Below are positions 15,145 through 38,200 of a stretch of 64,000 nucleotides of DNA, piece after piece; position 1 is the first letter of the stretch, and each line of letters begins with the position of its first letter. The DNA is taken from positions 130,627 to 194,626 of the IMG/VR virus record IMGVR_UViG_3300042453_004886; one strand, written 5' to 3'. Made by a program: the position numbers and the translations under genes. This DNA comes from a virus. The notes under the pieces are model-generated. The model was not told where the DNA came from. It saw only the letters and a program-made list of their open reading frames with translations, and searched no databases.

Positions 15145-15876
15145 ATGGCAACCAATAACATTATTTTTCTAGAGTTAGACGACACGTTTGACTTGTCACC
15201 CAACCTAGAAAACCTTGTAGCCGGTGAAACGCTAACTTACATTTCCGGAAGCGAAGAACTTTTAACTGTTTCATCTGAAGGCGTTGCCACAGTGCAACCT
15301 GGAGCCCTTGAAGGCGACTTGATTCTCGTTGAAGTTCACAGCTCCGAGAACGGATACGTCACCACGTTTTTCTTTATTATCGGAGCACCCGACGGGGTCC
15401 CCGAAGTTGTAACAGCTGAGGGGATTACTATTAACGTCAAGCCAGACGTGATTGTCAGCGTGGTGAGAGCAGATCCGGAAACTCGAGTACAAATTTTTGA
15501 CCACGCAGACACTGTTGTTGCAGAAGAAAACGTAACTAGCTTTGGATTTGCCAGAATTGCGGTACCTAGACAAAGTGTCATTGCTCCTGGAACAAACGAT
15601 AAAGGTATTGAACTCACCGTTGCGCGTGTCATTGAAAACAGCGCAGTGGGTACGCTGATTACTACTCAAAAAGCAAGTGTTGTTACCCCGTCAGCACCAA
15701 CTACAACACTTAGTCAGCAAATCAAAAATGTTCTTTTGACTCCTGTAACTACTACAACAACTACAACTACAACTACGACAACCACCACAACCACAACCAC
15801 AACCACAACTACAAATCCAGGAACAAGTTTAGGTTACGGTGAAGGTCAGTACGGAGATGGTGGATACGGACAGTAG
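15145..15876 (+). CDS. Putative virion protein with a 22-Thr tract and C-terminal Gly-Tyr repeat
   Basis: Beta-rich body; T22 encoded at 15748-15813; ends GYGEGQYGDGGYGQ. Confidence 0.75.
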   Translation: MATNNIIFLELDDTFDLSPNLENLVAGETLTYISGSEELLTVSSEGVATVQPGALEGDLILVEVHSSENGYVTTFFFIIGAPDGVPEVVTAEGITINVKPDVIVSVVRADPETRVQIFDHADTVVAEENVTSFGFARIAVPRQSVIAPGTNDKGIELTVARVIENSAVGTLITTQKASVVTPSAPTTTLSQQIKNVLLTPVTTTTTTTTTTTTTTTTTTTTTTNPGTSLGYGEGQYGDGGYGQ

Positions 15877-15920
15877 TGTAGTAGTATTAAAAAAGTACTA
15901 CATCCAGGAGTTTATCCAAA

Positions 15921-18080
15921 ATGGCACAAACAGCTAATTTTCAATTAAGTAAGCCCAATCAAGGAGCGTCTGATTGGCATATCGACTTAAATGAAAACTT
16001 TGATGTAATTGACTCTCAAATAAAAGTAGCTCAAACGCTTACCTCTTCCAAGATTAACTCTGCCCTTGGGTTTACTCCGCTCAACCCCGCAAACAAAGGG
16101 GCTGCAGACGGCTACGCTTCACTAAATGCTGCTGGTAAAGTTCCTCTGACCCAGCTAGCTATCAACAGCAGCCTGATTACAAACGCTCTAGGATTTACAC
16201 CGGAAAGCACAAGCAACAAAGGAGTTGCTGATGGATATGCTTCGTTGGACAGCAACGGCAAGGTGCCTTTATCTGAGCTAAATATCACCAGCGGAATCGT
16301 GACCACTGCTCTTGGCTACACTCCCGAAAATGTAGCCAACAAAGGTCAAGCCAACGGTTACGCTGAGCTAGATTCAAACGCCAAGATTCCTACAAGTCAG
16401 CTGAATATCACATCTTTACAGATCAACTCTGCTATTGGCTTCACACCTACAAACTCTACAACCAAAGGCGCAGCCGATGGGTATGCTTCCCTTGACGCAA
16501 ATGGATTTATTCCTGATGAACAGCTTTCCATTACTTCAAGCCATGTAACCGATGCACTTGGATACACTCCTGAAGATAGTGACAACAAGGGAGCTCCAAG
16601 CGGTTACGCATCCCTGGATAGCAACGGACAAATTCCTGCGGAAGAGCTACCAGCAGTTGCTTTTAGCTCGCTCTCAGATATAGAGCTTTCTTCGCTTTCT
16701 TCAAATCAAATTCTTCAGTATGACGGTACAAATTGGGTCAACGCTGACCCAACTGGCTCAGGTGTCACTGTTCTTTCCGGTATGTCGGATGTACAGATTA
16801 GCTCGCCAACTTCAGGCCAAGTTCTTCAATACAACGGAACAGCTTGGGTTAATGCTGCAGCGCCTTCTTCAGCAGTGCCCGTGCCTGTTCGTCAAACCGT
16901 GCTGACAGGCTCTGTAGCCGCTGCAACGGGTGCCGCTAACTTCTTGAGTGCAGGATCCGGTTTAAGCGTAAATTTGGCTGCTACAGCAGTTCCTGTGAAC
17001 ATTGCGTTTGCTGACGGATTTGGATCTGGTGGGGCTGTAGACTACGTTGGCACCGTAAGCTCAGACGTAACTTCTGCGTTTAGCGCACTACCTGCAAGCT
17101 CAACTTCTTACCTTTACGTAGATAGAAATTCAAGCACTGGTGCTTTGACGTACGGCGCTGTAACAAGTGTTCCAGTTTACAGCAGCGTAGAGCCTCTAGT
17201 AGAAGTAACTTCAGGAACAGCAACTTCTAGTGTTACGGCAACTAGTGGAAACGAAGCATCCAAGCTTTTTGACAAAAATCCTGCTACTGGTTTTGTAGCA
17301 AGCGCATCTACAACAGGCATTATCACATTTGTACCTACTTCAGCATTTTGCTTGGTTCGGTACAGCCTGACAGCTTGGGATACCACCTCTCCTGGTAGAA
17401 TGCCACGAGATTGGACCATTCAAGGTTCTAACGATGGTAATTCTTGGACAACAATTGATACCCGCTCAAGTCAAACGGGTTGGGTTTCTGGCGAAACTCG
17501 GCGTTTTACTGTAAGCAATTCAACTAGCTATGCTCAGTACAGAATCAACGTGAGCGCCAATAACGGAACCAACTTCCTTGAGATCCGAGGTTTATCGCTT
17601 TGGGGTATCCCGGTTGCTAACCAGCACTGGTTCGATCTGAACGCTATGCAGATGAAGGTGTGGAACGGTTCAAGCTGGGAAACCAAACAAAGAGTATTTC
17701 TTGGTGAAGCCGTAACAGGTGCGTCTTCTGTGACGTCTGCAATTACCTACGCACTTCAGGGTAGATACGAATCTGAAGTGTTTGCAATAGCTAAAAATAC
17801 AAGTTACACAAGATCTCATAACATTGGTACAGATCAGCTTGTTGCAAAAGGTTACTACAGGTACGATCAAAACTATATTTGGTCTGATATAGCTACTTAC
17901 AGGGGAAGCGCATTTTTTGGTGCAAGACTTTTTCCAGACAGGAACACAGTTAAAGTCGGTACTGCACCAGATTACTTAGCTTACGGGGATGCAAGTATTG
18001 TTATCTTTGGAACAGAAAACTTCCCCGCAGGAAACTCTACTTCAGGTGAAGCAAAGTTAATTGTAAGGCGCAGCTGGTAA
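15921..18080 (+). CDS. Tail fibre/receptor-binding protein 1 (repeat shaft plus F5/8-type-C-like domain)
   Basis: N-terminal TANFQLSKP...W..DLNENFDVID; repeated GFTPE..NKG..GYASLD..GKVP; WTIQGSNDGNSWTTID...YRINV. Confidence 0.8.
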   Translation: MAQTANFQLSKPNQGASDWHIDLNENFDVIDSQIKVAQTLTSSKINSALGFTPLNPANKGAADGYASLNAAGKVPLTQLAINSSLITNALGFTPESTSNKGVADGYASLDSNGKVPLSELNITSGIVTTALGYTPENVANKGQANGYAELDSNAKIPTSQLNITSLQINSAIGFTPTNSTTKGAADGYASLDANGFIPDEQLSITSSHVTDALGYTPEDSDNKGAPSGYASLDSNGQIPAEELPAVAFSSLSDIELSSLSSNQILQYDGTNWVNADPTGSGVTVLSGMSDVQISSPTSGQVLQYNGTAWVNAAAPSSAVPVPVRQTVLTGSVAAATGAANFLSAGSGLSVNLAATAVPVNIAFADGFGSGGAVDYVGTVSSDVTSAFSALPASSTSYLYVDRNSSTGALTYGAVTSVPVYSSVEPLVEVTSGTATSSVTATSGNEASKLFDKNPATGFVASASTTGIITFVPTSAFCLVRYSLTAWDTTSPGRMPRDWTIQGSNDGNSWTTIDTRSSQTGWVSGETRRFTVSNSTSYAQYRINVSANNGTNFLEIRGLSLWGIPVANQHWFDLNAMQMKVWNGSSWETKQRVFLGEAVTGASSVTSAITYALQGRYESEVFAIAKNTSYTRSHNIGTDQLVAKGYYRYDQNYIWSDIATYRGSAFFGARLFPDRNTVKVGTAPDYLAYGDASIVIFGTENFPAGNSTSGEAKLIVRRSW

Positions 18081-18096
18081 TAGGGGTAATTAAAAA

Positions 18097-20841
18097 ATGT
18101 CAGAAACAACAAACTTCAATCTGAGTAAACCAGCACAGGGTGCTCTTGATTGGGACACTGACCTTAACGCTAACTTTGACATCATTGATTCTGAGATCAA
18201 AGAAGCTCAAACTCTAACCAGTAGCAAAATTACAACTGCTCTTGGTTTTACGCCTCAGAACGTGACTCAAAAAGGCGTAGCCGATGGCTACGCATCTCTG
18301 AATGCAACAGGTAAAGTTCCTCTTACTCAGATTGCTCTGAACAGCTCAGCAATCAACACCGCACTTGGTTTTACTACACAAAACCCAGCGTCTAAAGATG
18401 CAGCTAACGGCTATGCAGGACTTGACGGAAACGGGAAGATTCTTTCCTCAAAGATTTCTTTAACATCAGGTACAATCACCACTGCTTTGAACTTTACTCC
18501 AGAAAGTATGTCCAACAAAGGTCAAGCGGGTGGATATGCATCTCTTGATTCAAACGGTAAAGTACCTTCAAACCAAGTTGCCCTGACTGAACAACAAGTC
18601 TTGGACGCAGTAGGCTACACCCCAGAAAGCGTAGATAATAAAAATGCTGCCAACGGCTACCCCTCACTGGATAGCAACAGCAAAGTAGCGTCAAACCAGA
18701 TTTCCCTGACAAGCTCCAAGATTACAACAGCACTCGGATTTACACCGGAAAACATCAACAACAAAGGTGCAAACAGCGGGTATGCAAGTCTCGACGGGAC
18801 AGGCAAGATTCCTCTGAGTCAGCATCCTTCTCTTTCTCTTAGCTCACTATCTGGCGTTAGCTTATCTTCACCGTCCTCAAATCAAATCCTTCAGTACAAT
18901 GGAACAAACTGGGTTAACGCTTCAGTTTCTTCTGGAGTGACTTCTCTCGCGGCAATGGGAGATGTTCAGCTTGGTAGCTTATCAAACGGTGAAGTGCTTC
19001 AGTACAACGGTACAAAGTGGGTAGATGCAGCTCTTTCAGAGCGTTGCACAGTTCCTGTCAGACAGACTGTGCTTACAGGGTCTGTAGCAGCTTCTACTGG
19101 TACAGCTAACTTCCTGAGTGCTGGAAATAAAACACCTACTCAATATATTGTTGAAGTCTACAACAACCTTGCATCAGATGGAGCCACAATTACCGAGCTA
19201 AGGGCTTACAATCAAAACGACACAGAAATTACTTATACAGTTACAAGTAGTGATGCTTACGACAGCAAAAGAAACGGTGTTCCAGAATACTGGAATCAAT
19301 CTATATGGAGCAAATCTAATTTAAACGATAATGATATGACTTATACAAGCAACAGCACCGGAAGTCCAAGCTCGGCTCTATTTATATACAATCAAGGTTC
19401 TATAACGGCAAATACTGGTGGTTGGGCAAGATTTTTAATTACACTTTCATCGTCTAACTACGACACCATTACGTTTAAAATTTGGGCGGGTTCTTCTGAA
19501 AATAGAATCCCAGAAAAGATTACTATTTACGCAGTTACTGGAACCTACAGCCTTGCAACCCACGTTCAAACAAGAAGCGTAGTTGGATTGACTGAAGCAG
19601 GTAGTAGAACTTTAACACTTAGCAATACAACTGTAACTCAAACTTCCCATAGCTATACACCAAATCCTTCTGTTAATTTAGCTGCTTCTTCAACAAACGT
19701 GTCTGTTGCTTTTGCAAATGGTTTTGATGCTTACGGTGCGGTCGACTACGTAAGCGTAATTAATGCAGACGTTTCTCCTGCAGTTGCTGGTCTAAAAGGA
19801 GGACTTACAAATTACATTTATGTAGATAGAAACCCATCGACTGGAGCATTAACTTATGGATCTACTACCGTAAAACCTATTTATGAGCAAATTGATCCTT
19901 CAGCCGGTACATATGGCTCTATCCAATATATGCTGCTTTCTAATATGACCGCAGATAATTTTCCATCTCCTTACGTAGCTAGCTCAAGTAGCGTTTGGTC
20001 TTCTTCTTATGCAGCTTATAAAGCATTTGATGGAAACTTAGGTACTAACTTTGTGTTTGCAAGCGGACAAAAGACTGGGTGGTTGAAAATTGATCTTGGT
20101 TCTGGAAATCAGTTTGTAGCAAAATCTTACGCCTACACGGGATCAAATACAGCTAGCAACAGTGGAAAAACATGGACTTTCCAAGCATCTAACGATGGAG
20201 ACAACTGGACAACAATTGACACCAAAACAAATCAAAGCTGGACAAGCGGTGAAAGAAAATACATCACAGTTTCTAATTCGACTGCTTACAGATACTATCG
20301 TTTAGATATTACTGCTAACAATGGCGGCACTGAGTGTCAAGTTAACGAATTCCAGATTTATGGAATTCCAAATAACCAGCACTGGTTTGACTTGAATACC
20401 ATGACGATGAAAGTCTGGAACGGCACCAGCTGGGAAACTAAACAGAGAGTATTTATTGGAGAAGCAGACACCTCTGGAAACGTGACAACTTATGCACTTC
20501 AAGGTAAGTATGAGTCAGAGGTAATTAGCATAGCAGCTGCCTCAACCTATACAAGATCTCACAACATTGGAACAGAACTAGTCAGCACCGAAACCCTGAT
20601 CAGGTATAATGCTAATTACAAGTGGACGGATGCTCAGATTCTCTATACAAGCCAATACTACGGGGTTAGAACATTCCTAACTGACAGAAACAGAGTAAAG
20701 CTTGCAACGCCTTCCTCAAATATTTATTATGGCGGTGGAACAGTCAGCTCTTCTGAGTGGGGTTCTTGGTTAACAGAGTCTTTCCCAGCTGGCTTACAGT
20801 CCACAGGACAAGCCAAAGTTCTTGTGAAGCGCAACTGGTAA
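18097..20841 (+). CDS. Tail fibre/receptor-binding protein 2 (paralog)
   Basis: Same N-terminus, repeats and QHWFDL...KQRVF module; WTFQASNDGDNWTTID. Confidence 0.8.
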   Translation: MSETTNFNLSKPAQGALDWDTDLNANFDIIDSEIKEAQTLTSSKITTALGFTPQNVTQKGVADGYASLNATGKVPLTQIALNSSAINTALGFTTQNPASKDAANGYAGLDGNGKILSSKISLTSGTITTALNFTPESMSNKGQAGGYASLDSNGKVPSNQVALTEQQVLDAVGYTPESVDNKNAANGYPSLDSNSKVASNQISLTSSKITTALGFTPENINNKGANSGYASLDGTGKIPLSQHPSLSLSSLSGVSLSSPSSNQILQYNGTNWVNASVSSGVTSLAAMGDVQLGSLSNGEVLQYNGTKWVDAALSERCTVPVRQTVLTGSVAASTGTANFLSAGNKTPTQYIVEVYNNLASDGATITELRAYNQNDTEITYTVTSSDAYDSKRNGVPEYWNQSIWSKSNLNDNDMTYTSNSTGSPSSALFIYNQGSITANTGGWARFLITLSSSNYDTITFKIWAGSSENRIPEKITIYAVTGTYSLATHVQTRSVVGLTEAGSRTLTLSNTTVTQTSHSYTPNPSVNLAASSTNVSVAFANGFDAYGAVDYVSVINADVSPAVAGLKGGLTNYIYVDRNPSTGALTYGSTTVKPIYEQIDPSAGTYGSIQYMLLSNMTADNFPSPYVASSSSVWSSSYAAYKAFDGNLGTNFVFASGQKTGWLKIDLGSGNQFVAKSYAYTGSNTASNSGKTWTFQASNDGDNWTTIDTKTNQSWTSGERKYITVSNSTAYRYYRLDITANNGGTECQVNEFQIYGIPNNQHWFDLNTMTMKVWNGTSWETKQRVFIGEADTSGNVTTYALQGKYESEVISIAAASTYTRSHNIGTELVSTETLIRYNANYKWTDAQILYTSQYYGVRTFLTDRNRVKLATPSSNIYYGGGTVSSSEWGSWLTESFPAGLQSTGQAKVLVKRNW

Positions 20842-20854
20842 TTGGAGTAAATAA

Positions 20855-23566
20855 ATGTCAGACACAACTAACTTCAACCTGAGCAAGCCAGCAGAAGGTG
20901 CTTTAGACTGGGATGTTGATCTCAATAACAACTTTGACATTATTGATGAAGAAATAAAGAACGCTCAGACCCTGACAAATGCCAAAATTACCACAGCGCT
21001 AGGTTTTACCCCCGAAGATTCCTCCAAGGGTGGTGTAGCGGACGGATTTGCAACTCTGAATGCTGCTGGCAAGGTTCCTGTTACTCAAATTGCTATCAAT
21101 AGCGCAACTGTTACAGATGCTCTTGGGTATACTCCTGAAGACGCTGCAAACAAAGACGCAGCAGGTGGCTACTCAAGCCTTAATTCTTCGGGTAAAGTTC
21201 CTTCGGCAAATCTTGCTATTACCGACCAGATTATTGCAGAATCTTTAGGGTTTGTTCCAGAAAATCCTACAAACAAAGGCGTTGGTCTAGAATCAAGCCA
21301 GACTCAAGCTGCTGTTCCTGAAATGACTTCAGCAACTTCTGGAGATATTACGATTTCGGGTTCTGGTTGGGTAAACTCAGTTTGGGCAAGTGGCGGATCA
21401 GCTTATCCGTGGTCATTTTTTAACGCATCCGTAGGAAACCCGCATACCCCTGGTTCAGGCGGTGGAAGCGGTTCTTCTGCTTCTGTTACAGTAGACTTTG
21501 GATCTGGAAACTTAGAAAGAATTGTTAGTTACAGGGTTGGATTTAATAGCGTTTACTGTAGCTCAGCAAATATTTCAGGCTCTAACGATCAAAGTTCTTG
21601 GACTTTACTAAATAGTTCATCTGGTTCTTCCCCAACTACTATTAGCTTTATTAATTTAAATAGCTACCGTTACTACAAAATTACTTTATATTCAGGTGGT
21701 TATAGTCCTCTACTTCCTGGAGATTTACAGCTTTACCGGCACGTAGACAGCGGTTATGTAAGTCTTGATGCAAACGGTAAGGTAAGCAGCACTCAGATCT
21801 CTTTAAATAGCTCTCATATTTCTGATGCGCTTGGATTTGATTCTGAAAATGCAAACAACAGAGGCGCGGTAAATGGCTACGCTTCTTTGGATAGCAATGG
21901 AAAGATTCCTACAGCTCAAATCAGTCTTTCTGAAAGTAATGTAACAAACGGACTGACTTTTATACCTCAGAATCCCAGTGCTAAAGACGCTGCAAACGGA
22001 TACGTAGGGTTAGACGTAACCGGAAAAGTCTCTAGTTCCAAACTCGTATACAATTTCTCAAAGATCTCAAATCTTTCTATCTCAGCACCTTTGACTGGAC
22101 AGACACTTCAGTATAACGGAACAAGTTGGGTAAACGGAGCAGTTCCTTCCGGCTCATCTACACTTGCTGGTGGCCTTTCAGACGTTTCAATTACTTCACC
22201 TTCAAGTGGACAAATTCTTAAGCACAACGGAACTGCTTTTACAAATCAAACCGGGGGCTCAAGCCGAGTTACAGTTCCAGTAAGACAGACGGTTCTTAGC
22301 GGAGCTACTGAACGTTATTCAGGTGTAGCTAACTTTTTAGCAGCCGGTTCAGGGCTAAACGTAAACCTTTCCGCAACTTCAGTTCCCGTAAACATTGCTT
22401 TTGCTGCCGGAACAGATTCATCCGGAGCTGTAGACTACATCGGAACAATTAGCTCTGACGTGACAAATGCATGGACTTTGCCTTCAAGCTCAACGTCTTA
22501 CCTGTACGTTGAAAGGAACTCCTCAACGGGAGCTTTAACATACGGATCTACAACTGTTCGGCCTCAGTACCAGCAGTGGTTATACCTTGGTCCAGACTTG
22601 ACAACAGGCGGAACAGCAACAGCTAGCTCTACCTACAGTGGATCTTGGCCCGCATCCGCAGCTTTTAGTGACAATGGATATGGTGGCAGCTCCGGTACAT
22701 CTTGGTTAGCAACAGATGGCACAGGATCCGGTTGGCTTCAATATCAGTTTGCGTCAGCACAAACTATTATCAACTACACAATTTATGCAGATTCTACTAG
22801 AACTGATAACGCCCCTAAAAACTGGACTTTTGAAGCTTCAACTACAGGAGCAGCCGGTAGCTGGGTTGTATTAGACACCCAAACAAATCAAACCGACTGG
22901 GCTACAACAAACGGAAGAAGCTACACTTTTTCAAATAGCACAGCTTATACATACTACAGAATTAACATTAGTGCTGTAAATAACACTGTTGCTGGCGGAG
23001 CGCCAAGTAATCGCATGGGCATTGGTGAAATGGAGATGCGCGGTTTTGCTGCAAATGTCCAGCACTGGTTTGATCTGAGCACCATGACCATGAAGCTCTG
23101 GAATGGGTCTTCTTGGGATACCAAACAGCGGGTGTTTGTCGGTGAAGCTGTAACAAATGCTTCAGCAGTCACTTCTGTTACTGCTTATGCACTAAAAGGT
23201 TACTTTGAATCGGAAGCTTTCCATGTAAGTAAAAATACGTCTGGATCAAGCGTTTATAATATTGCACACAACATTGGGGTTGATCCCACTTTTTACTCAA
23301 CCCTGCTTCGATACAACAGTGACTACAAGTGGACTGAAGTAACTCAATTCTCCGATGGGTCAGGATACGCTAATCCAAGAAGTTTCTTAGATTACAAAAC
23401 CATTAAAGTAGTGCCTCCATACCACTACATTTACATTGCTTCAACTCTTACCGGTGCCCAGTCTCGTCCAAACCTTGGAATTGATTCTTTCCCAAGCACA
23501 ACAGATGCGGCTCCAACCTATCACACCGCAGGTGAATGCAAAGTTGTAGTCAGTAGAGGCTGGTAA
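20855..23566 (+). CDS. Tail fibre/receptor-binding protein 3 (paralog, two F5/8-like domains)
   Basis: Same architecture, with an extra ISGSNDQSSWTLL...YRYYKI domain inside the repeats. Confidence 0.8.
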   Translation: MSDTTNFNLSKPAEGALDWDVDLNNNFDIIDEEIKNAQTLTNAKITTALGFTPEDSSKGGVADGFATLNAAGKVPVTQIAINSATVTDALGYTPEDAANKDAAGGYSSLNSSGKVPSANLAITDQIIAESLGFVPENPTNKGVGLESSQTQAAVPEMTSATSGDITISGSGWVNSVWASGGSAYPWSFFNASVGNPHTPGSGGGSGSSASVTVDFGSGNLERIVSYRVGFNSVYCSSANISGSNDQSSWTLLNSSSGSSPTTISFINLNSYRYYKITLYSGGYSPLLPGDLQLYRHVDSGYVSLDANGKVSSTQISLNSSHISDALGFDSENANNRGAVNGYASLDSNGKIPTAQISLSESNVTNGLTFIPQNPSAKDAANGYVGLDVTGKVSSSKLVYNFSKISNLSISAPLTGQTLQYNGTSWVNGAVPSGSSTLAGGLSDVSITSPSSGQILKHNGTAFTNQTGGSSRVTVPVRQTVLSGATERYSGVANFLAAGSGLNVNLSATSVPVNIAFAAGTDSSGAVDYIGTISSDVTNAWTLPSSSTSYLYVERNSSTGALTYGSTTVRPQYQQWLYLGPDLTTGGTATASSTYSGSWPASAAFSDNGYGGSSGTSWLATDGTGSGWLQYQFASAQTIINYTIYADSTRTDNAPKNWTFEASTTGAAGSWVVLDTQTNQTDWATTNGRSYTFSNSTAYTYYRINISAVNNTVAGGAPSNRMGIGEMEMRGFAANVQHWFDLSTMTMKLWNGSSWDTKQRVFVGEAVTNASAVTSVTAYALKGYFESEAFHVSKNTSGSSVYNIAHNIGVDPTFYSTLLRYNSDYKWTEVTQFSDGSGYANPRSFLDYKTIKVVPPYHYIYIASTLTGAQSRPNLGIDSFPSTTDAAPTYHTAGECKVVVSRGW

Positions 23567-23580
23567 CTTAAAAAGCTTAC

Positions 23581-23612
23581 AGCAGCGCTGCCGAATCGGC
23601 AGCGCTGCTTTT
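23581..23612 (+). terminator. Terminator of the fibre operon
   Basis: AGCAGCGCTGCCGA-A-TCGGCAGCGCTGCT followed by TTT. Confidence 0.75.
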
Positions 23613-26025: not shown

Positions 26026-26502
26026 ATGGCAGACGTATTTCAAGGCCCTTACGCGCACGCAGAGAATGCGCCGATGTTTGTTCAAAAGTGCATCTGTCCC
26101 CTGTCTTGTCCGGAACACCCAGACGTTCCTTTGATTGATCCCGCTGAAGAATTGGCAAGGCAAGTAAATCAAAGTACAGAGCTTATTTCAAGCTACGTTA
26201 CACCGCCTTCTATCATTCCCGTAGTCATCGAGAATGCAAAACAAATTCTTGAAGACAATCAAATTTCTATTCAAGAAATGGGCGAGTCAATCGCTGTAAG
26301 AACTGCAACGGGTTTGATTACTTTCTCCTACGAAGTTGCAAATGCGCTTTGTCAAGAAATTCTTTCATCTCGTAAAAGAATTGAATTGACACTTCCAGAA
26401 ACTTTAGATACAACTATACAAACACTCAAACAAAGAGCTGGTCACGACATGGAACCGCTGATTGATATGATCGAAAAGCTTTTAAAGAACAAAAATGGTT
26501 AG
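26026..26502 (+). CDS. Hypothetical protein
   Basis: 158-aa ORF with GAGGAG RBS; CICPLSCPEHP. Confidence 0.75.
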   Translation: MADVFQGPYAHAENAPMFVQKCICPLSCPEHPDVPLIDPAEELARQVNQSTELISSYVTPPSIIPVVIENAKQILEDNQISIQEMGESIAVRTATGLITFSYEVANALCQEILSSRKRIELTLPETLDTTIQTLKQRAGHDMEPLIDMIEKLLKNKNG

Positions 26503-27961
26503 GTATATAAGTGTTATTACTGACTATGAGTACTTGCTATGGCAGCAAGAACTACAGGTATTTAATTTCAAACTGCTCGAGATCTTAGATCAACTGACCG
26601 TTGTTGTTCTCAGAGATTCTGGAGTTCCACTCAGCGAGCACGCTAAGAAGCTTGCCGATCTGGTCGACGTTCACTATTTCGTGAATGATCAGCCAGATCG
26701 TTCTTATATTCCCAGTAACAAACCTTGGGGATTGATGAAGCTTCTTGAAAAGCATCCCGAGTATGGCGAAGAAGTTTTCCTGCTTGACTCAGATGTCATT
26801 TTTAAAGAACGCCTGAATTTTAACAACATCAACCGTAGAAAAAACGACAAGACTTGGTATGTGTCCAACTGCGTAGGTTACCTTGGATACAGCTACTTGG
26901 TTGATCAGCTTGGAGAAGAGCTGGTCGATCAAATGGCTCAAGTTGTAGGACTAACTGGAGAGCGCCTGAAGAAAGAGCAACTAAACTCAGGCGGTGCTCA
27001 GTATTACATGAAAAACGTGACTGCTGACTTCTGTAAGCAAGTTGCTCTGGATTCAATCAATATTTATAACTGGTCTATTCAACACAAGAAACCCGACGGG
27101 TCTTACAAGATTCAAGTCTGGACCGCGGAGATGTGGTCATGGCTCTGGAATGCTTTTAAAGTTGCTGACGTTAAAGTTAGTTACGAAATGCGATTCTCTT
27201 GGGCACCTCACGACATAGAAGAGTGGTACTCGTGCAAGATGCTACACCTTGCAGGTGTTGTCGGAGAAGAGAAAAACAATTTCTACAAGGGAAAATACGC
27301 AAACAAAGCGCCTTGGGAAGTTGAAACTAACTTTCATCATGTAGATCGATCCAAGTGCTGGGGTCCCTATGTAGAGCTCATAGAAGCCTACAAAAGCCTT
27401 CCTACAAAGCGAGGAGTTGTCTGCTACCTTGACGATACGCCAGAGGCCGTAGAAAGCGCTACAAGGCTGTTTGAGAGCATCCTAAACTCTGGGCATCAGG
27501 ATACAGACCTGATCCTGTTTGGCTCAATAAAAACTCTTTCAAATATGAGTAACCATCCAAGGTTAGCTAAGATTGTTACAAACCCAGAACCAGGGTCTGA
27601 AGTAGCACCCGAACTGAACTCATACGCATGCTTTAAAAACGACCACGGTGTTTTGTACAAATACAGCCACCTTTTAAAAACAAATGTGTCTACTGTAATC
27701 AAACAAAACTGGAAGGATTTCCTACCAGATAGGCTTGTAACTGGTCCAAAATCGTTTCCAGATTACACTTTTTACGGACCTACATCTCAAGTTCTAGAAG
27801 TATGCCAAGCAGGTCTGAGGCACGCAAAAAGAGTTTTACACGACATGGAACACCGCGCTCCTTTTTATTCAGTTTATACAGAAATAGTAAATAGAATTCA
27901 CTGGTTTGAAGAACGGTTAGAGGAAAAAGATTTACCTTGGGCTACTGCTAATCTTGTATAA
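26495..27961 (+). CDS. Putative GT-A fold glycosyltransferase (peptide O-glycosyltransferase-like) with a second, degenerate domain
   Basis: YIPSNKPWG; FLLDSDVIF (DxD); GGAQY; WTAEMW; LHLAG. The C-terminal ~180 aa (DTDLILFG...YSHLLKTNV) resemble a decayed GT-like domain. Confidence 0.7.
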   Translation: MVRYISVITDYEYLLWQQELQVFNFKLLEILDQLTVVVLRDSGVPLSEHAKKLADLVDVHYFVNDQPDRSYIPSNKPWGLMKLLEKHPEYGEEVFLLDSDVIFKERLNFNNINRRKNDKTWYVSNCVGYLGYSYLVDQLGEELVDQMAQVVGLTGERLKKEQLNSGGAQYYMKNVTADFCKQVALDSINIYNWSIQHKKPDGSYKIQVWTAEMWSWLWNAFKVADVKVSYEMRFSWAPHDIEEWYSCKMLHLAGVVGEEKNNFYKGKYANKAPWEVETNFHHVDRSKCWGPYVELIEAYKSLPTKRGVVCYLDDTPEAVESATRLFESILNSGHQDTDLILFGSIKTLSNMSNHPRLAKIVTNPEPGSEVAPELNSYACFKNDHGVLYKYSHLLKTNVSTVIKQNWKDFLPDRLVTGPKSFPDYTFYGPTSQVLEVCQAGLRHAKRVLHDMEHRAPFYSVYTEIVNRIHWFEERLEEKDLPWATANLV

Positions 27962-28017: not shown

Positions 28018-29133
28018 ATGGCTTACAAATTTACGTTTGCTGATGGCAGCTCAACAGTAAATTTAGTACCTGAAACAGCTACAAAAGCTATCTGGTACTT
28101 AAAAGAAGCTCTTAAATCAGCTGGCTGGGTTGTCAAACATACGTTTAAAGCAGCAAGCCAAACCTTGGAGTCTCCCGACTCAACTGGAACAACTTCTGAT
28201 ATTTCTCCAGATTCAGATGGCTTAGCATCAAATGGCTCTTGGTTTGTCATTCAGCAACCTTCAGCTAATGCAGACTCAAGCCCTGTTCAAGCACCTTTTG
28301 GCGGAACCAGACAGTATATATTTGTTCGAGGAAATGACGATAAGCAATGGTATATTGGCTACAGTTACACAGGTACATTTGGAAACGCAACTGTAACTGA
28401 TATTGCTTATGCTCCGGATGAAAAACCAGTAATCGGTTCTGTTCCCTTTGTATCAAGAAATACGTCAAATCATGAAATTTCTGGAATAACATTTACTTAC
28501 AACATGTTTCCAGATGTAGTAAGCACGGGTGGATCCGTTCTTCAGTTAGGTGTTTCGGATAAAGCTCCGTTTACTTTTTACTTTGTAAACTACATTAGTG
28601 GAACAAATCAAAACGCTGACACTGGCGCAACTACAGGTTTCATGACGGAAGCAATGGCTCCGGGTACGTTTACTTTTGATTCAGACAATCCGTATAACCC
28701 GGCGTTTACGGACATTGATCCAATTGTTCACTATATTCACCCTTACATTGGCTATTACTCCTATTACGGAATGGTTCAGCCAACTGCTGCTTTTTCAGTA
28801 GGAATGCTTTCTCAGAGTGCTACAAATGGAAAAATGTGGTTTAAACCTACTTCAGGAAACGCTCAGTGGGGTAATGTATCAGCTGGCTTAACGTCATTTA
28901 CTTCCGGAAGTGTTCCAAACGGTATGGGGAACGACCACATAACAAATAAAGTTATTCTTGTTCCAATACAGTGGGGATCAGGCTCACTTGGTTTGAGAGG
29001 GATTGGTTCAACATTTAGGTGGCCTTCCAGTAATCTTTTACACGGTCAGCTTGTTTCTGGGGCTACTGATAAAGTTTGCTTTGATGATCTTGTATTTCCT
29101 TGGCCAAGTGATGAAATCATTCCTTTCAGGTAA
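28018..29133 (+). CDS. Putative virion structural protein
   Basis: 371-aa Gly/Ser/Thr-rich beta protein at the head of the structural operon; GAGG RBS. Confidence 0.6.
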   Translation: MAYKFTFADGSSTVNLVPETATKAIWYLKEALKSAGWVVKHTFKAASQTLESPDSTGTTSDISPDSDGLASNGSWFVIQQPSANADSSPVQAPFGGTRQYIFVRGNDDKQWYIGYSYTGTFGNATVTDIAYAPDEKPVIGSVPFVSRNTSNHEISGITFTYNMFPDVVSTGGSVLQLGVSDKAPFTFYFVNYISGTNQNADTGATTGFMTEAMAPGTFTFDSDNPYNPAFTDIDPIVHYIHPYIGYYSYYGMVQPTAAFSVGMLSQSATNGKMWFKPTSGNAQWGNVSAGLTSFTSGSVPNGMGNDHITNKVILVPIQWGSGSLGLRGIGSTFRWPSSNLLHGQLVSGATDKVCFDDLVFPWPSDEIIPFR

Positions 29134-29138: not shown

Positions 29139-29843
29139 ATGGATGTTTTGGAAAGCTTTGAGTGGTCAACCTATAGCTTTGAATCTGGCTTAAACATATT
29201 TTTAGCTGTAGAAGTAAACTACACCTTAGAGCCTTTTAAAATAAAAAGTTACTACAACTTATCAAACTACACTTTAGAAACTTCTAACATTAAAGTTTAC
29301 TCAAGTGACTATCCCACCTCCGCAGTGGCTTTTAGAGAAATTACGCTTACTCCCCCAACTACAACTACAACTACAACTACAACTACAACTACAACTATTC
29401 CCCCGACAACTACTACAACAACTACAGAGCCTCCCACAGCAACAACAACTACAACAACTACAACAACTACAACTACAGAGGCTCCCACGACAACTACAAC
29501 AACAATTCCGCCCACTACCACTACAACAACAACTACAGAACCTCCTACGACTACTACAACAACGATTCCTCCAACTACTACAACTACGACTACAACGACT
29601 ACAATACTGCCTACGACCACTACAACAACGATTCCCCCAACAACCACTACAACTACAACTACACGAGTTCCTGAAGTTGAAGTAGTTGTGAGGATGGGGG
29701 ATTGCTCAAGAACTTACACTTTCGAGGCTGCATCAAGAACTTATCCTAGGCCTTCTTCTTCAAGAACAATGCCTGATGTTTGTCTTGGTCAAAAATTTGG
29801 TTTTGGCTACGCAGAATTTGGATCTAGTGGTTTTGGTACCTAG
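29139..29843 (+). CDS. Mucin-like Thr/Pro-rich protein with C-terminal Gly-Phe repeat
   Basis: About 105-residue (T)n-IPP/EPP/EAP repeat; ends GFGYAEFGSSGFGT. Confidence 0.8.
   Translation: MDVLESFEWSTYSFESGLNIFLAVEVNYTLEPFKIKSYYNLSNYTLETSNIKVYSSDYPTSAVAFREITLTPPTTTTTTTTTTTTTIPPTTTTTTTEPPTATTTTTTTTTTTTEAPTTTTTTIPPTTTTTTTTEPPTTTTTTIPPTTTTTTTTTTILPTTTTTTIPPTTTTTTTTRVPEVEVVVRMGDCSRTYTFEAASRTYPRPSSSRTMPDVCLGQKFGFGYAEFGSSGFGT
29356..29397. repeat. (CAACTA)7 microsatellite inside the Thr tract
   Basis: Seven exact hexamer copies; unit length preserves the frame. Confidence 0.9.
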
Positions 29844-29854
29844 GGAGAATTAAT

Positions 29855-31657
29855 ATGTCAACTGAACCAGATCCTATTCCTCCTATCACCAGAAAAACTA
29901 CAAACTTTAAATTAAACCTCCACGAACGTAAGATGCGGGAGTGGACTAAAACCATGAATGATAACTTTGAAATATTGGATAGAATTGTAGGGAAGTTGGT
30001 TCCAACTCCGCCCCCAAGTTTATCAACAAAAACTCCTGTACTTACAAATGCTTATTCAGCAAGACAAGCAGGGACAGGTATTTTACGATCAACTGTAACA
30101 GACGCTTACATGCCTACTGTAGAAGTAAGTTCTTTTTATGACGGAGACGCTGGAACTCTAGAAGCTTTTATTAATGGCATTTCTGTAGGTTCCAAAGTTT
30201 TATCTGAAGCAAACGATGAAGGAACCTACGACAGGCTTGTGATTGTATCTGATTCAGATCCTTACGTAGGTACTCAAGGTAAAGAAAACTTCTATAAACA
30301 GCTTACAGCTAGATTTAGCCCTTCTAATTACTTATCTCCTGGAGGCGCTGGACACACTTTTCAACTCAAACACTCTAATACAGGAGACTCTTCTACTCTA
30401 AACGTATGGGTAGATAACTCCGGATCACCTTCAATTGACCAATCCTCTGTAAGCATTTCTATGCCAAGCACAAGCTCTGGATCCTCCCAAAAAGTTGCAA
30501 GTGTAACCGGAATGACCATCGCTATTAGCGTAACAGCATCTAGCTCGACTCCGGTTGGAGAGTACTATTTAAACTATACAAACATGTCAGGAATGCATTT
30601 AATAAGTCTCACTGGAAGTTTATTCAACTCAGTAGATAGTTTAAATGTAATGAACTGGCCAGTTAACTGGACAACTAACAATGGTCTAACTTTTACCTTT
30701 AAAACTCAGCCACCCATGTCAAATGAAAGCCAGCCTGTTCTTGTAAGCATGGGGTCTTCCTCGCCCTCTACCCCAACATTTTCAAAACACGTATCCGGTG
30801 TTCCAGTACTAAACACAGGAGACCTCTTGAGCGTTTCCTACACTGTAAATGGAGCAGTAGGTAACTTTTATAATGCGACTAGAGTTGCACGAATTGAATC
30901 AAGCGTTGCAAATACAGTAGATATTGCTCCAGCAACGTCTCCGTACTCTAGCGGAGACCCCATACAGGTTAATTTACAAGTTCCCATCAAATCTAACTCA
31001 TTTGCAGTAAATGCAAGTTTTAAGCTACTTGGTTATAACTCTAAAGGTATTTCAGCATCCTTAGATCATTTTTCAAACTTAAGAGTAGACTCCATTTCAA
31101 ACGAATCTCAAAGATTAAAGTCAGGTGCTGGTCAGTTTCCCACAAAAGGTTCAACTTCAGCTCAGTTTGGGGATCCTTTTGATTCCACAGAATCACTGAT
31201 GCTCAATGAAGAACTTTTGATGGAAGGCGGAGTTTACAAGTTTCCTCAACCTGTAAATTACTCATCTTTTGGAGGACCAGATTACTCACTTATAAATGGC
31301 GGGAGTTACAGCAATTTCAGGTGGGTAACCCTGAACCTTGGAACTTTAAGCCAAGCAAGTGGTATGTCTTTGACATTTCAAAATGCTGCTAACTTTGGAT
31401 CAGGAGTAATCAACTCTGCTTTAAAGATATATGTAAAAGTTGATGGATCAACCGGATGGCTAGACGCCTCAACTGCTTATCAGGGAGGCGGAGTAAGTCC
31501 CGCAGATGATGGAGACGCTGCTCTGGTTGTTTCAAGCTCGAGTACTACAATAAAAAGAATAACTTTTGGACCTACAGTAAGATCTGGAATAGTATATGCA
31601 CGCATAGGAATACAAAAAGGATCTACAATATCTTTTAGTGGAGTTGTGAGGTCTTAA
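29855..31657 (+). CDS. Putative virion structural protein
   Basis: TTNFKLNL...W...MNDNFEILD fibre-type N-terminus; 600 aa, Ser/Thr-rich. Confidence 0.7.
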   Translation: MSTEPDPIPPITRKTTNFKLNLHERKMREWTKTMNDNFEILDRIVGKLVPTPPPSLSTKTPVLTNAYSARQAGTGILRSTVTDAYMPTVEVSSFYDGDAGTLEAFINGISVGSKVLSEANDEGTYDRLVIVSDSDPYVGTQGKENFYKQLTARFSPSNYLSPGGAGHTFQLKHSNTGDSSTLNVWVDNSGSPSIDQSSVSISMPSTSSGSSQKVASVTGMTIAISVTASSSTPVGEYYLNYTNMSGMHLISLTGSLFNSVDSLNVMNWPVNWTTNNGLTFTFKTQPPMSNESQPVLVSMGSSSPSTPTFSKHVSGVPVLNTGDLLSVSYTVNGAVGNFYNATRVARIESSVANTVDIAPATSPYSSGDPIQVNLQVPIKSNSFAVNASFKLLGYNSKGISASLDHFSNLRVDSISNESQRLKSGAGQFPTKGSTSAQFGDPFDSTESLMLNEELLMEGGVYKFPQPVNYSSFGGPDYSLINGGSYSNFRWVTLNLGTLSQASGMSLTFQNAANFGSGVINSALKIYVKVDGSTGWLDASTAYQGGGVSPADDGDAALVVSSSSTTIKRITFGPTVRSGIVYARIGIQKGSTISFSGVVRS

Positions 31658-31658
31658 C

Positions 31659-35228: not shown

Positions 35229-35235
35229 GAATTAT

Positions 35236-38200
35236 ATGGGTGGTTACGGAAGTGGTGGATTTGGATTAGGTGGTTTTGGTGTAGGTGCTACAACCACTAC
35301 AACAACGCTTGCTCCTGGTACATTTGGAGCAGGTGTTGTCAGCGGTGGCCTTAAAAAAATGCCTGCCCACGCTGTTCAAATGCAGGATGAAAGAACTTTT
35401 GCAGACCATATCAGAGATTACAGGGCAGAGCTAAATCAAAAAACCTTGGATGTATCCGAAGTTGAAAAACAAGCTCAAATACTTTTTTCTCAGCAAAAGC
35501 ATGCAGCTGTAAACCAAGGAGGCCACCTTGCATCTCACATTGTTTCAGAACAAGATCTTAGCTCAACAATAAGTTTGCAAGATTACATAAATGAAGTAAA
35601 AGCAGCAAAAGGTCCTTACAGCGATCTAAGAACAGCTGTGTCTGTTGCTTTAGGAAAAACAATCGTAAGAAAATGGAACAATGAAGCGGCATACAAAAAA
35701 GAAATAATAACTGGTTTGGATTACAAGTCAGACCTGAACAAGCTTATTTTAAGCAAAACCTTTGTAAAAGCAAAAGAAATATCAAATACAGTTGTACCTG
35801 TTCTTACTCAACAAACTGAATCGACAGACCCTGTTGTGGTCACCTCCAAGTTTTATAACAGTCCTGCAGTTTTGCCCACATCTTACGGTTGGCAGCTTTT
35901 TGACGGTGACCCTAATACCATTTTTTCTATTCCAAATAGCGGAGCAGATTATACTGCAACCGGATGGGTTCAAGTTAAATTGCCTGAAGTTAAAAAAGTT
36001 GTTTATTACAAAATTACTCCTTATGGCTCAACCTCTTGGAGTTACCAAGGATACTATGGAAGATATTATTTGGAAGATCCATCTTCTTGGGTACTACAAG
36101 GATCTCAGGATGGAGTTAATTGGACAAATCTTGACTCACGTTCTATAAGTTTTGATAGAAATCCTGGGCTAGCTGACTACTCCAAACTTTTATATGTTGA
36201 TTCTCCCGGTTATTACAGATATTACAGGCTTAATCTGACAGGGCCTGGAGCTTGGGGAACAAGTATAAAAAATATAGAGCTATACGAGTACTATGTTAAT
36301 AGTGCAGGTAAAAATATAGATCGTAATCTTGTATATGATTTTGCTGATCCAGATTCTAGTAGTAAGTGGATCTTAAACAACGGTAGGCTTGAAATAAAAC
36401 CATACCCTGACGGGAATTACCCAAGAACAGCTATTTACTTATCTGAAAAACTTCAAGCTCCTGGAAACAAGTTCGGTGACGGAGCAATTGGTAGGTTTAA
36501 CTGGGATCAGACAGGATCTAACGTAGCATTTCAAGTCAGATCAGAAAAAGCACCTTCTGGCTCTGAAAATATTGCTGTTGGAAAAACAGTTACGTCAAAC
36601 TTCACTCGAGCAGCTTCAAGTACTGCAACATTTGAAAAGCTAACAGATGGCAGTATTTCTAATTTAGAAACTGTTAATTACAATCTTACTGAATCTGGAG
36701 CAACTTCTGACGGGGATTACCCCTGGGTTCAAGTTGATCTTGGTAAAGTATTTAGACTGAATAGTATAAAAGTATTTCATTACTACCCAAATAGTGGTGT
36801 TTTGTATTATGACAGTATTTTAGAAACATCTGAAGATGGCGTAAATTGGCAAGCTGTATTTGCCAGCGGAAGGCACGGTGAAAGCCCTCTTACTTATGCA
36901 GAAAGTTCACAAGGTAAAACTCACAGCTTGAACGCTAGAAGAGTTAGATACGTAAGAGAAAAAATAAGAGGCTACTCTTCAGGAAATTCTTCAAATACTA
37001 CTCAAAACTTTTACAATCAAGCAATTGAAGCAAGATGGGCAGAAATCCAAGTTTACCCTCTGTCTTTTGATGAGCTTGACTGGGATCAGATCAAACGAGG
37101 TCAAGACCTCTACACGTCAAGCAATCATCAAGGTAATGACTGGTTTCAATACAAAATTATTCTTGAAGGACAAAATCCACTGACTAAAGAGTACAGTGAA
37201 TCAATTACTTTAGACACAGAATCATCTACAAATCTAAATATTAATACAAAAGAACTAAACTATAACAAAACTTCAGGGGAATGGATAAGTAAACCCTACA
37301 CGATTGATAAAGACTTTGTAAAACTAAAAAGATTAAATCTATCCTACACTGGAAGCATTAATTGGACCTATCGAACAGGTATTATGAGTGCCACGGGTAT
37401 ACTGTGGGATGACTGGAAAACTGTTCCTTCCAGCGGTAATGTAGAGGCTTTTAACAAGCTTAGTTATAACATTGTTCAGCTTAAAGCAAACATGCAAAGA
37501 CTCACAGTACTAGATCCAAGCCCAACAATTACATCTGCACAAGCTACATACAACGCAACTGTTTATGCTGTAACTCCTAGTGTCAGAAACGTTAGAATGA
37601 ATAACTACATTCAAACTTTTCAAGGAAGCGGCCAGATACAAATTGTTTTAGATACTCAGTCAACAGGTACTGTCTTTAAAAGAATAAAGTGGAACCAAAT
37701 ACTTCCTTGGGACACAGGAATTTCTGTACAAGCGAGAGCTTCGGATACTTATCCTTTCGACGAGCAGAACCAGAGTTTTGAAATTATTAGAACTGCTGGA
37801 GAAGGAATAAACCAAATTGGTAGATATGTAGATGTAAGGTTTGTACTTTCTTCTTTTTCAGGAGACTATACAAGTAAAATATATAATCTTGAAATTGAGT
37901 ACGAACTTTATAAAAACTATGAATCAAACAGAAATATACAAGAACTTTTTCAAGATACAATTAAAACTAATTTTGAGCTTAAAAGAAAAACTTTATACAA
38001 TGAACAAAAACTTTACAGGATGTTTACAGATGTATTTGAGGACACTTCAGGTATAGGCCCTGGTTCATATAATTACTCCTACAACGGTGTTGCTAAATAT
38101 ATTTACTCACCAAGGTACGAAGCAACACTTGTAACTCCTTTACTCCCAGTAAATGGTTTAATCAACAATTTTATATCGTCTATTTCTTACGACCCAGGAT

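Follow-up and report, generated by a model that had tools for sequence, protein, structure and literature searches.

Genes of one uncharacterised glycosyltransferase (GT) family, phrog_4417, adjoin genes for proteins carrying runs of threonine in many unrelated phages, an arrangement of genes pointing to a sugar-coating of phage particles that may be widespread and has not been described before. The member of the family analysed here is encoded in a window of 64,000 nucleotides (positions 130,627 to 194,626 of the virus record IMGVR_UViG_3300042453_004886) and is, by its predicted fold, a GT-A glycosyltransferase. From sequence comparisons and the structural model, we consider it probable that this enzyme acts in the cytoplasm, attaching O-linked sugars to the Thr tracts of virion-associated proteins. 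In the mechanism proposed, a soluble, cytoplasmic, metal-dependent GT-A enzyme would, late in infection, move sugar from a host nucleotide-sugar to the hydroxyls of poly-threonine tracts in O-linkage, with threonine the presumed acceptor residue. The candidate acceptors in this phage are the products of the ORFs starting at 15145, 29139 and 35236, which lie in or beside the fibre block and which we take to be virion parts (Table 1). Glycosylation would precede assembly onto the particle, giving rise to glycan-decorated, mucin-like appendages, for which shielding, desiccation protection, and adhesion are putative roles. Smaller relatives combine an enzyme of this family with major capsid and tail-tube proteins that end in short poly-Thr tags.

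Table 1. Features of the window discussed in the text, numbered from its first nucleotide.
Feature	Position	Strand	Length (aa)	Remarks
Fibre/adhesin block	15.1-44.4 kb			Not the head-tail core
Thr-tract protein	15145..15876	+	243	Candidate acceptor; all-beta N-terminal part, T22 tract (nt 15748-15813), GYGEGQYGDGGYGQ C-terminal tail
Three paralogous tail-fibre-like genes	15921-18080, 18097-20841, 20855-23566	+		F5/8 type C (PF00754)
ORF with no family match	26026..26502	+	158	3' end overlaps GT start by 8 nt
Glycosyltransferase (GT)	26495..27961	+	488	phrog_4417 match; AF2 model; GT-A fold
GT catalytic GT-A domain	residues 1-304, nt 26495-27406	+		phrog_4417 family
GT second domain	residues ~305-450			Truncated, DUF7164-like; acidic D-x-D-like motif lost
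ORF with no family match	28018..29133	+	371	Between GT and mucin-like gene
Mucin-like protein	29139..29843	+	234	Main candidate acceptor; two genes downstream of GT; ~70-aa N-terminal part, Thr/Pro repeat, ~55-aa C-terminal part, GFGYAEFGSSGFGT tail
Fibre-like protein	29855..31657	+	600	phrog_8578; directly 3' of mucin-like gene
Fibre/tail-like protein	35236..38373	+	1045	Candidate acceptor; F5/8 type C domains

The preliminary description of this DNA had looked to co-occurrence of GT and poly-Thr genes across phages as a means of examining such a system, and the comparison was strongly positive, with GT homologues tightly linked to poly-Thr ORFs in phages and prophages. ORFs with runs of six or more Thr (T6+) were present in 70/80 viral loci and 41/80 genome loci holding a GT homologue. 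Following dereplication of these loci at 70% identity, 39 of the 86 resulting clusters contained a T6+ ORF in the locus, with 28/86 containing one no more than 100 nt from the GT. Up to 500 nt from the GT, T6+ ORFs occurred at 3.9 per 10 kb, compared with 0.14 at distances of 5-10 kb, a 28-fold difference, and all but one of the 74 T6+ ORFs near the GT lay on its strand. Background was gauged by this positional density within loci, by a reverse search from poly-Thr DNA, and by matched GT-negative relatives, with homologues of the RNase H and helicase, as control loci, having no relatives in IMG/VR. In the reverse search, 6 of 54 IMG/VR loci chosen solely by a T8+ ORF held a GT, always as the directly adjacent gene, with the GT absent from the other 48 within the short stretches covered. 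PHROG and Pfam searches of ten poly-Thr ORFs adjoining GTs in aquatic phage loci gave very little, namely a SprB repeat in two and one unannotated PHROG, and none of the papers covered by the literature search described poly-Thr tags together with a phage GT.

No T6+ ORF was present in 47/86 dereplicated clusters, mostly chromosomal copies in Bacteroidota, so Thr tracts are not the only acceptors of the GT family. That about half of the clusters lack such a neighbour is compatible with an alternative we regard as unlikely, in which the GT modifies a target other than the Thr tracts, such as a host envelope polymer (teichoic acid, O-antigen, or capsule) or another phage product, with the Thr tracts being flexible linkers that stay unmodified and occur frequently in these modules by coincidence. 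The fusion of Bacteroidota chromosomal copies to Glyco_transf_7C or GT2, typical of polysaccharide synthesis, points the same way, as does the similar GT-A fold of the wall teichoic acid GTs TarP (Z 8.9) and TarS (Z 8.8). However, the same-strand adjacency described above, with its sharp peak at the GT, argues against such a target, as does the GT model, which opens with the first Rossmann strand and lacks a membrane anchor. Furthermore, the siphophage GT lies inside the late head-tail operon (between the tail-tube protein gene and the chaperones, or after the capsid gene) rather than in a lysogenic-conversion position, and two independent contrasts between lineages show the Thr tails coming and going together with the GT.

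The two contrasts involve Lactobacillus phage iLp84 and Enterococcus phage phiFL1A. In iLp84, the major capsid protein (MCP) ends ...VPTTTTTTTSK and the tail-tube protein (MTP) ends ...GETTTTTTTSK, with the GT located in the head-tail module and preceded by a mucin-like ORF of 125 aa. In phiFL1A, poly-Thr tails are again carried by the MCP and MTP, and the GT follows the MTP in the head-tail module. Six syntenic phages without the GT served as matched controls, namely four Streptococcus phages of the same synteny as phiFL1A (MCP 60-69% identical to it), Oenococcus phiS11 (MCP 54% identical to that of iLp84), and TP-778L. None of the six has a T5+ run, and their MCP and MTP stop where the poly-Thr tails begin in the GT-bearing relatives, such that in two independent lineages poly-Thr tails on capsid and tail-tube proteins accompany the GT and are missing where it is missing. 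Many Bacillota prophages encode three virion-sized proteins with C-terminal poly-Thr tags, and in Chryseobacterium phage MA9V-3 the two ORFs just 5' of the GT contain S/T tracts of 21 to 41 residues. The genome analysed here has no C-terminal tags on capsid or tail-tube proteins, its T6+ runs being restricted to three ORFs of the fibre block. Small mucin-tailed ORFs resembling the 29139 product lie directly beside the GT in iLp84 (iLp84_8) and in the Bacillota prophages L089 and L098, and small proteins composed of an N-domain plus a mucin-like tail adjoin the GT recurrently in other phages.

To our knowledge, phage virion glycosylation is documented only for some mycobacteriophages, in which it alters antibody recognition. 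As summarised in papers citing the work on Che8, Rita, and others by Freeman et al. 2023 (PMC12619734, PMC11256854), GTs of these phages modify their own virion proteins, with the glycans carried on the C-terminal ends of the capsid and tail-tube subunits, the same place as the poly-Thr tails of iLp84 and phiFL1A. The same summaries place the mycobacteriophage GT genes towards the 3' genome end, away from the structural genes, whereas the GT of this phage and its relatives lies beside its presumed substrates. The mycobacteriophage acceptors are the MCP and tail tube, compared with fibre-associated candidates in this phage. The hosts also differ, the phrog_4417 system being found with Bacillota, Bacteroidota, and aquatic bacteria, and the literature searched contained no description of a homopolymeric Thr tag.

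A further parallel is offered by PBCV-1 A64R, a capsid-glycosylating enzyme, and Mimivirus R699, both virus-encoded cytoplasmic GT-A enzymes for virion proteins, as is proposed for the phage GT. In contrast to the giant viruses, which have eukaryotic hosts and large glycan pathways of their own, this phage genome yielded neither a nucleotide-sugar pathway gene nor a second GT, and any glycan is therefore likely to be short or host-elongated. We know of no Thr-tract acceptors in giant-virus capsid or fibril glycosylation.

More broadly, the phrog_4417 enzyme and an encoded T6-T20 tag may constitute a portable, modular glyco-tag system, in which the tag would direct whichever virion protein bears it (capsid, connector, tail tube, fibre, or dedicated mucin-like decoration) to O-glycosylation in the cytoplasm, and which would be spread in phages of Bacillota, Bacteroidota, and aquatic bacteria, with the enzyme a prokaryotic/viral cousin of plant GT95/GT96; we hold the chances of this wider reading to be about even. 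Were the proposed activity correct, the GT family together with poly-Thr tags would provide a sequence signature predicting glycosylated virions in many phages, including cultured phages of Lactobacillus, Enterococcus, Staphylococcus, Clostridium, and Chryseobacterium, and would assign a function to an unannotated family of several hundred sequence clusters. It would also bear on phage therapy (immune recognition and mucus adherence), dairy phage biology, and particle stability in water, offer a short genetically encoded tag for site-directed protein glycosylation in bacteria, and make it possible to test a suggested evolutionary connection with the glycosylation of plant extensins.

The motifs first noted in ORF 26495-27961 are all present in its translation (D98-S-D100, Y71-IPS-NKP77, G166-GAQY170, and W209-TAEMW214), and the GT-A fold is borne out by a confident AF2 model (pLDDT 87.7), with residues 1-304 forming a single Rossmann-like alpha/beta/alpha domain. 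GT residues 16-299 match positions 15-291 of the 293-position phrog_4417 profile (E 5.1e-58). The DxD motif (LLDSDVIF) is accompanied by a conserved constellation of His, Lys, and Gln, with D98 and D100 invariant in sets of 31, 99, and 141 sequences, W16, Y71, G167, F234, F263, and K265 also invariant in the 141 family representatives, and H251, Q207, and W214, amongst others, at least 90% conserved in them. As read from both sequence and model, the N-terminus (MVRYISVITD) is strand 1 of the fold, and no hydrophobic segment precedes the domain.

Residues 1-304 align to many GT-A enzymes with Z of 9-15 (81 chains with Z of at least 8), the nearest solved folds being the retaining GT8-type enzymes glycogenin (Z 14.9) and LgtC (Z 14.0), with Skp1 alpha-GalT (Z 14.0), GlyE (Z 11.8), PBCV-1 A64R (Z 11.8), and Mimivirus R699 (Z 11.1) also matched. 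The alignments to glycogenin, LgtC, and GlyE extend over 206-233 residues at 9-10% identity. The GT8-like fold suggests that the phage GT uses a retaining (alpha-type) mechanism. GlyE is itself cytoplasmic and acts on a Ser/Thr-rich repeat protein, in the pneumococcal serine-rich-repeat adhesin pathway. The phage GT has a DxD followed downstream by a conserved His and Lys (H251 and K265), which may correspond to those of GT8-type enzymes; the spacing between this His and Lys appears to differ from that of the GT8 motif, HxxGxxKPW. The Pfam model Glyco_transf_8 matched 0/99 phage GT family representatives at E up to 0.01, and a Pfam scan of the GT protein gave no family at E up to 0.1. Sequence searches of the PDB with the GT profile and the single sequence returned nothing useful, and a profile search of a 5.8-billion-protein set returned only GT-family members with no names.

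A likeness to the plant-type GT95/GT96 enzymes had also been proposed, and here the evidence divides. In the ESM Atlas, the nearest named family is HPAT (PF23452), which accounts for 21 of the 30 nearest named clusters to the phage GT (scores 0.96-0.97), with HPAT-bearing clusters superposing at TM 0.75-0.76 in the structure search. The Pfam HPAT model, however, matched neither the ORF 26495-27961 product nor any of the 99 family representatives, nor the six-frame genome at E up to 10, and the best solved folds are the GT8-type ones above. The kinship with GT95/GT96 is thus only a lead. Plant and algal HPAT (GT95) and the Ser alpha-galactosyltransferase SGT1 (GT96) glycosylate the Ser-Hyp4 tracts of extensins and are Golgi type II membrane proteins in plants (PMC8012813). 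Their acceptors are extended, repetitive tracts of hydroxy-amino acids, as is proposed for the phage GT, whereas the acceptor residue is Hyp or Ser rather than the candidate Thr, and the membrane anchor of the plant enzymes is lacking from the phage GT in both sequence and model.

Amongst all ORFs of at least 60 aa in the 194,626-bp genome, T6+ runs occur in only three, with one T5 run elsewhere, indicating that Thr tracts are far from a general compositional feature; all three ORFs lie no more than 11 kb from the GT. The 22 consecutive ACN codons of the 15145 ORF (10 ACA, 6 ACT, 5 ACC, and 1 ACG) are confirmed, as is the Thr/Pro repeat of the 29139 product, which spans ~107 residues (about nt 29349-29669), of which 78 are Thr and 17 Pro, and contains units such as T6-13 followed by IPP, EPP, or EAP. 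Near the N-terminus of the 35236 product, which starts MGGYGSGGFGLGGFGVGATTTTTT, a Gly-aromatic segment is followed by T6 (nt 35290-35307). The mixture of Thr codons, previously taken to indicate selection on Thr rather than slippage, is real, however it is roughly that of background Thr codon usage, and the 6-nt ACTACA-like periodicity detected by Tandem Repeats Finder (83% matches) indicates that slippage contributes. The one homologue of the 15145 product available for alignment (P0279, 94% identical) retains the Thr segment in a rearranged form, T4-VAP-T9-AAP-T7, together with the GYG tail. Modelled by AF2 from its sequence alone, the 15145 product gave an unusable structure (pLDDT 37). 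PHROG and Pfam searches gave no structural match for the 15145 and 29139 products; the exception was the 35236 product, which matches the phrog_17517 tail protein (E 9e-11) and F5_F8_type_C (E 8e-16).

All three Thr-tract proteins have termini rich in G[YF]G, and the top fold match of the GT, glycogenin, glucosylates tyrosine. These observations, with the retention of the tail in the 94% homologue, would fit a glycogenin-like GT that sugars the tyrosines of the Gly-aromatic (GYG) segments flanking every Thr tract here, the tracts being spacers; we judge this very unlikely, as Phe rather than Tyr abounds in two of the three tails and the recurrent partner of the GT is poly-Thr itself. A Gly-aromatic tail as a general partner of the GT system was rejected, with the motif accompanying poly-Thr in just 1/193 T6+ ORFs of other loci.

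The placement of the GT in a structural module was overstated in the preliminary description. A fibre/adhesin block is present, however the upstream neighbours of the GT are an RNase H and a ferritin-like protein, and the wider window consists mostly of replication genes (DNA polymerase, helicase, and thymidylate synthase). This setting, with RNase H flanking the GT and the helicase and DNA polymerase further off, raises the idea that the GT glycosylates phage DNA bases, such as hydroxymethyl-pyrimidines, against restriction; phage GTs acting in DNA hypermodification are known (bioRxiv 10.1101/2023.12.21.572611). We consider this exceedingly improbable, given that no homologue of a ThyA-type hydroxymethylase was found in the genome, the thymidylate-synthase-like ORF 10775-11587 matching phrog_85 only, that no DNA glycosyltransferase is amongst the best fold matches listed, and that the GT of relatives lies in structural operons beside Thr-tagged proteins.

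With the mucin-like gene two genes away and the other two Thr-tract ORFs 10.6 kb and 7.3 kb distant, the linkage of GT to Thr tracts is looser in this phage than in its relatives. The overlap of ORF 26026..26502 with the GT suggests that the two are co-translated; PHROG and Pfam scans gave no family match for this ORF or for 28018..29133. F5/8 type C domains, also noted at the outset, were found in six fibre-like ORFs. The three paralogous fibre genes, which the 15145 ORF directly precedes on the 5' side, show matches to phrog_17517, phrog_7389, and phrog_13892, and their products (from 15921, 18097, and 20855) share with the 29855 product the N-terminal motif TTNFxL...W...NxNF[DE]I[IL]D.

The C-terminal half of the GT aligns to DUF7164 of its relatives, with SDLDVF replaced by TNVSTV and ~95 residues deleted. 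The Pfam model of DUF7164 (PF23741) is matched by the relatives P0007, P0012, and P0019 (E 1e-48 to 1e-50), with no match in the GT itself, and residues 302-447 match only half-Rossmann folds (Z ~9). An hhalign comparison of the DUF7164 halves of relatives with the N-domain family gave a colinear alignment with paired D-x-D motifs but of 2.4% probability (E 0.02), which does not amount to evidence of homology. The closest relatives of the GT, from Logan assemblies, are 52-59% identical and DUF7164-fused. GT2, GT25, and Glyco_transf_7C are also fused to GT relatives, as is radical-SAM/SPASM in a few, and PqqD is carried by ESM Atlas clusters structurally near the GT; both radical-SAM/SPASM and PqqD are domains that occur in peptide-modifying enzymes.

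Translation of the ORF at 26495-27961 (+) confirms in its 488-residue product the motifs D98-S-D100, YIPSNKP, GGAQY and WTAEMW, from which the preliminary description had recognised a glycosyltransferase (GT). The protein has no Pfam match, its N-terminal 300 residues match phrog_4417, a family without assigned function (E 5e-58), and a full HMMER search against 1.84 billion cluster representatives returns 663 relatives. The identity is borne out by an AlphaFold2 model (pLDDT 87.7, 31-sequence alignment), with exhaustive structural comparison grouping residues 1-304 with GT-A glycosyltransferases; retaining GT8-type enzymes lead, the matches being glycogenin (Z 14.9), WbbM (14.1), LgtC (14.0), Skp1 alpha-galactosyltransferase (14.0), GlyE (11.8) and PBCV-1 A64R (11.8), and the nearest viral structures in BFVD are uncharacterised proteins. 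Among 141 representatives, W16, Y71, D98, D100, G167, F234, F263 and K265 are invariant, and Q207, W214 and H251 nearly so. GT8 enzymes bind metal through the DxD motif and a downstream His, and the diphosphate through a Lys; the conserved pattern appears to fit this arrangement, as a likeness of pattern.

Evidence on the proposed resemblance to GT95/GT96 enzymes is mixed. In the ESM Atlas, HPAT (PF23452) is the nearest named family (21/30 nearest named clusters, scores 0.96-0.97), and by structure one HPAT cluster from green algae and one PqqD-HPAT cluster from proteobacteria are matched at TM 0.75-0.76, but the Pfam HPAT model matches neither the GT, nor the whole genome in six frames, nor any of 99 family representatives. 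GT95/GT96 is thus a reasonable lead to distant kinship rather than membership, and assignment to these families is unproven. No link between HPAT-like enzymes and phages was found in a full-text literature search of incomplete coverage. A second domain that has a D-x-D-like motif of its own, DUF7164, is present in close relatives and decayed here: ~95 residues are absent, and LK[ST]D[LV]D[VT]F of the relatives reads LKTNVSTV (the motif now being TNVSTV), with the model still giving half a nucleotide-binding fold. DUF7164 has the look of another GT-A domain, and the ESM Atlas ranks it near the N-domain; homology between the two is unsupported by hhalign (2.4% probability). Fusion partners in other relatives are GT2, GT25, Glyco_transf_7C, methyltransferase and radical-SAM/SPASM domains. 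The radical-SAM/SPASM fusions (P0090 and P0142, GT-domain relatives from outside the window), together with a structurally similar bacterial cluster ("PqqD family protein", ESM Atlas) bearing PqqD, a peptide-recognition element of RiPP pathways, hint at ribosomal peptides as acceptors for part of the wider family.

The three Thr tracts of the preliminary description are present in the ORFs it named, and a scan of all ORFs of the source IMG/VR record (194,626 bp, rated complete, the window being its bases 130,627-194,626) finds runs of six or more Thr (T6+) in these three only. All four Thr codons occur in near-background proportions and a 6-nt periodicity is detected, so that selection for Thr and a degree of slippage are each plausible. 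In a homologue of the 15145 product with 94% identity over the folded part, the segment is Thr-rich yet rearranged (T4-VAP-T9-AAP-T7), composition, not sequence, being kept there.

Features of the fibre block and its Thr-tract proteins (window positions; numbers in brackets give gene order between the two fibre groups)
Feature	ORF	Position	Remark
T22 tract	15145-15876	15748-15813	
Gly-aromatic segment GYGEGQYGDGGYGQ, then stop	15145-15876	15835-15873	terminus beside Thr tract
Fibre-like proteins, F5/8 type C domains	15921, 18097, 20855		paralogous
(1) Ferritin-like protein	23694-24518		274 aa
(2) ORF			no assigned function
(3) RNase H			
(4) 158-aa ORF			overlaps GT start
(5) GT	26495-27961		
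Decayed DUF7164 domain of GT	26495-27961	27407-27958	residues 305-488
(6) 371-aa ORF			no assigned function
(7) Mucin-like gene	29139-29843		
Thr/Pro stretch	29139-29843		~107 residues, 78 Thr and 17 Pro
Gly-aromatic segment GFGYAEFGSSGFGT, then stop	29139-29843	29802-29840	terminus beside Thr tract
(8) 600-aa protein	29855-31657		no annotated family
(9) 1189-aa ORF			no assigned function
Gly-aromatic segment MGGYGSGGFGLGGFGVGA	35236-38373	35236-35289	terminus beside Thr tract
T6	35236-38373		residues 19-24
Fibre-like proteins, F5/8 type C domains	35236, 38383, 42365 (also paralogous)		

Linkage between GT homologues and poly-Thr ORFs, proposed from this one genome, extends to other loci. A Thr-run ORF lies within 10 kb of the GT homologue in 70/80 IMG/VR loci and in 41/80 loci from prokaryote genomes. 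With GTs clustered at 70% identity, a T6+ ORF is present at the locus of 39 of the resulting 86 clusters, and for 28 it lies within 100 nt. Such ORFs number 3.9 per 10 kb up to 500 nt from the GT and 0.14 per 10 kb at a distance of 5-10 kb, 73/74 sharing its strand. Conversely, among IMG/VR stretches picked solely for ten consecutive ACN codons (short, median 9 kb), 6/54 with a T8+ ORF contain the GT, in all six as the immediate next gene downstream. In many Bacillota prophages, three proteins whose sizes match a capsid, a connector and a tail-tube protein bear T6-T9 at the extreme C-terminus. SprB repeats, familiar from Bacteroidota gliding adhesins, occur in poly-Thr ORFs adjoining GT homologues in two aquatic phage loci from IMG/VR (L004, 10985-13255; L014, 11000-11857), hinting that the hosts are Bacteroidota and the role is adhesin-like.

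Cultured phages display the same pairing. Lactobacillus phage iLp84 carries the GT (iLp84_9) between the capsid gene and head-tail connector, with its capsid protein ending ...VLVPTTTTTTTSK and its major tail protein ...GETTTTTTTSK; the 125-residue ORF immediately 5' of the GT, in which a small domain precedes T6-T12 blocks with VKP, VAP or EAPP between them, closely resembles the 29139 product. Enterococcus phage phiFL1A has the GT (gp51) after the major tail protein, with poly-Thr C-terminal tails on capsid protein gp45 and tail protein gp50, and in Chryseobacterium phage MA9V-3 two ORFs immediately 5' of the GT contain Ser/Thr tracts of 21 to 41 residues. Four Streptococcus phages sharing gene order with phiFL1A (capsids 60-69% identical) lack a GT gene as well as any T5+ run over 12.9 kb; in both their capsid and their tail protein, the end falls where the phiFL1A tails start (...PEGVVEATIQAAAPGVGG compared with ...PEGVVEATISGETTTTTKPTTTTTKPTTTTTTTQG). 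The iLp84 contrast has the same outcome: Oenococcus phage phiS11, its capsid 54% identical, lacks both GT and tags, and so does Streptococcus phage TP-778L. GT and tags are gained or lost jointly in two independent contrasts.

This co-variation, and the late-operon position, fit poorly with a role in modifying the envelope; the numerous Bacteroidota copies on chromosomes that have no Thr neighbours may have such a role. Modification of phage DNA is unlikely, with the family located in structural operons and a ThyA-type hydroxymethylase homologue absent from the genome. Comparative genomics lends good support to the core of the interpretation, a phage system that would glycosylate proteins with Thr tracts; biochemically it is unproven. 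As neither a further GT2 or GT1/4 enzyme nor an NDP-sugar epimerase is recognisable in the genome, the putative glycan probably consists of one sugar or a short chain built from host nucleotide-sugars; shielding, desiccation and adhesion roles for such a coat are speculation. Two reports (PMC12619734, PMC11256854) describe mycobacteriophage virions glycosylated on the C-terminal ends of their capsid and tail-tube subunits, with GTs encoded far from the structural genes. Virion glycosylation as such is already known; what would be new is the enzyme family and the simple acceptor signature. A full-text search, incomplete in coverage, turned up no account of a phage GT paired with poly-Thr tags.

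The Gly-aromatic segments beside the tracts may be docking or cross-linking elements. The segment is retained in the 94% homologue, and only 1/193 ORFs of other phages combines it with poly-Thr. The small proteins 15145 and 29139 are encoded directly 5' of fibre-like genes, and the 35236 product is itself fibre-like, with the segment fused to it. That the GT acts as glycogenin does, on Tyr in these tails, is very improbable, the tails being particular to this phage's proteins and no general partner of the GT.

The GT had been placed in a structural module, and it does lie among fibre genes; this module is a fibre block and not the head-tail core, since the remainder of the window is replication machinery. 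Its family A DNA polymerase (56828-58819) has its closest counterparts, only 27-29% identical, in Microcoleus phage My-WqHQDG and Microcystis phage LMM01, and neither the phage collection nor IMG/VR yielded a close relative of the phage. An N-terminal motif, TTNFxL...(D/E)W...NxNF(D/E)I(I/L)D, is common to the paralogous fibres (15921-15990, 18097-18170, 20855-20930) and the 600-residue protein (29891-29990), which suggests a shared attachment module for different fibres. The ferritin-like protein matches phrog_2859 in its N-terminal part and PF00210 (E 2e-17) in its C-terminal half, a fibre block being an unusual location for an iron-storage or Dps-like fold.
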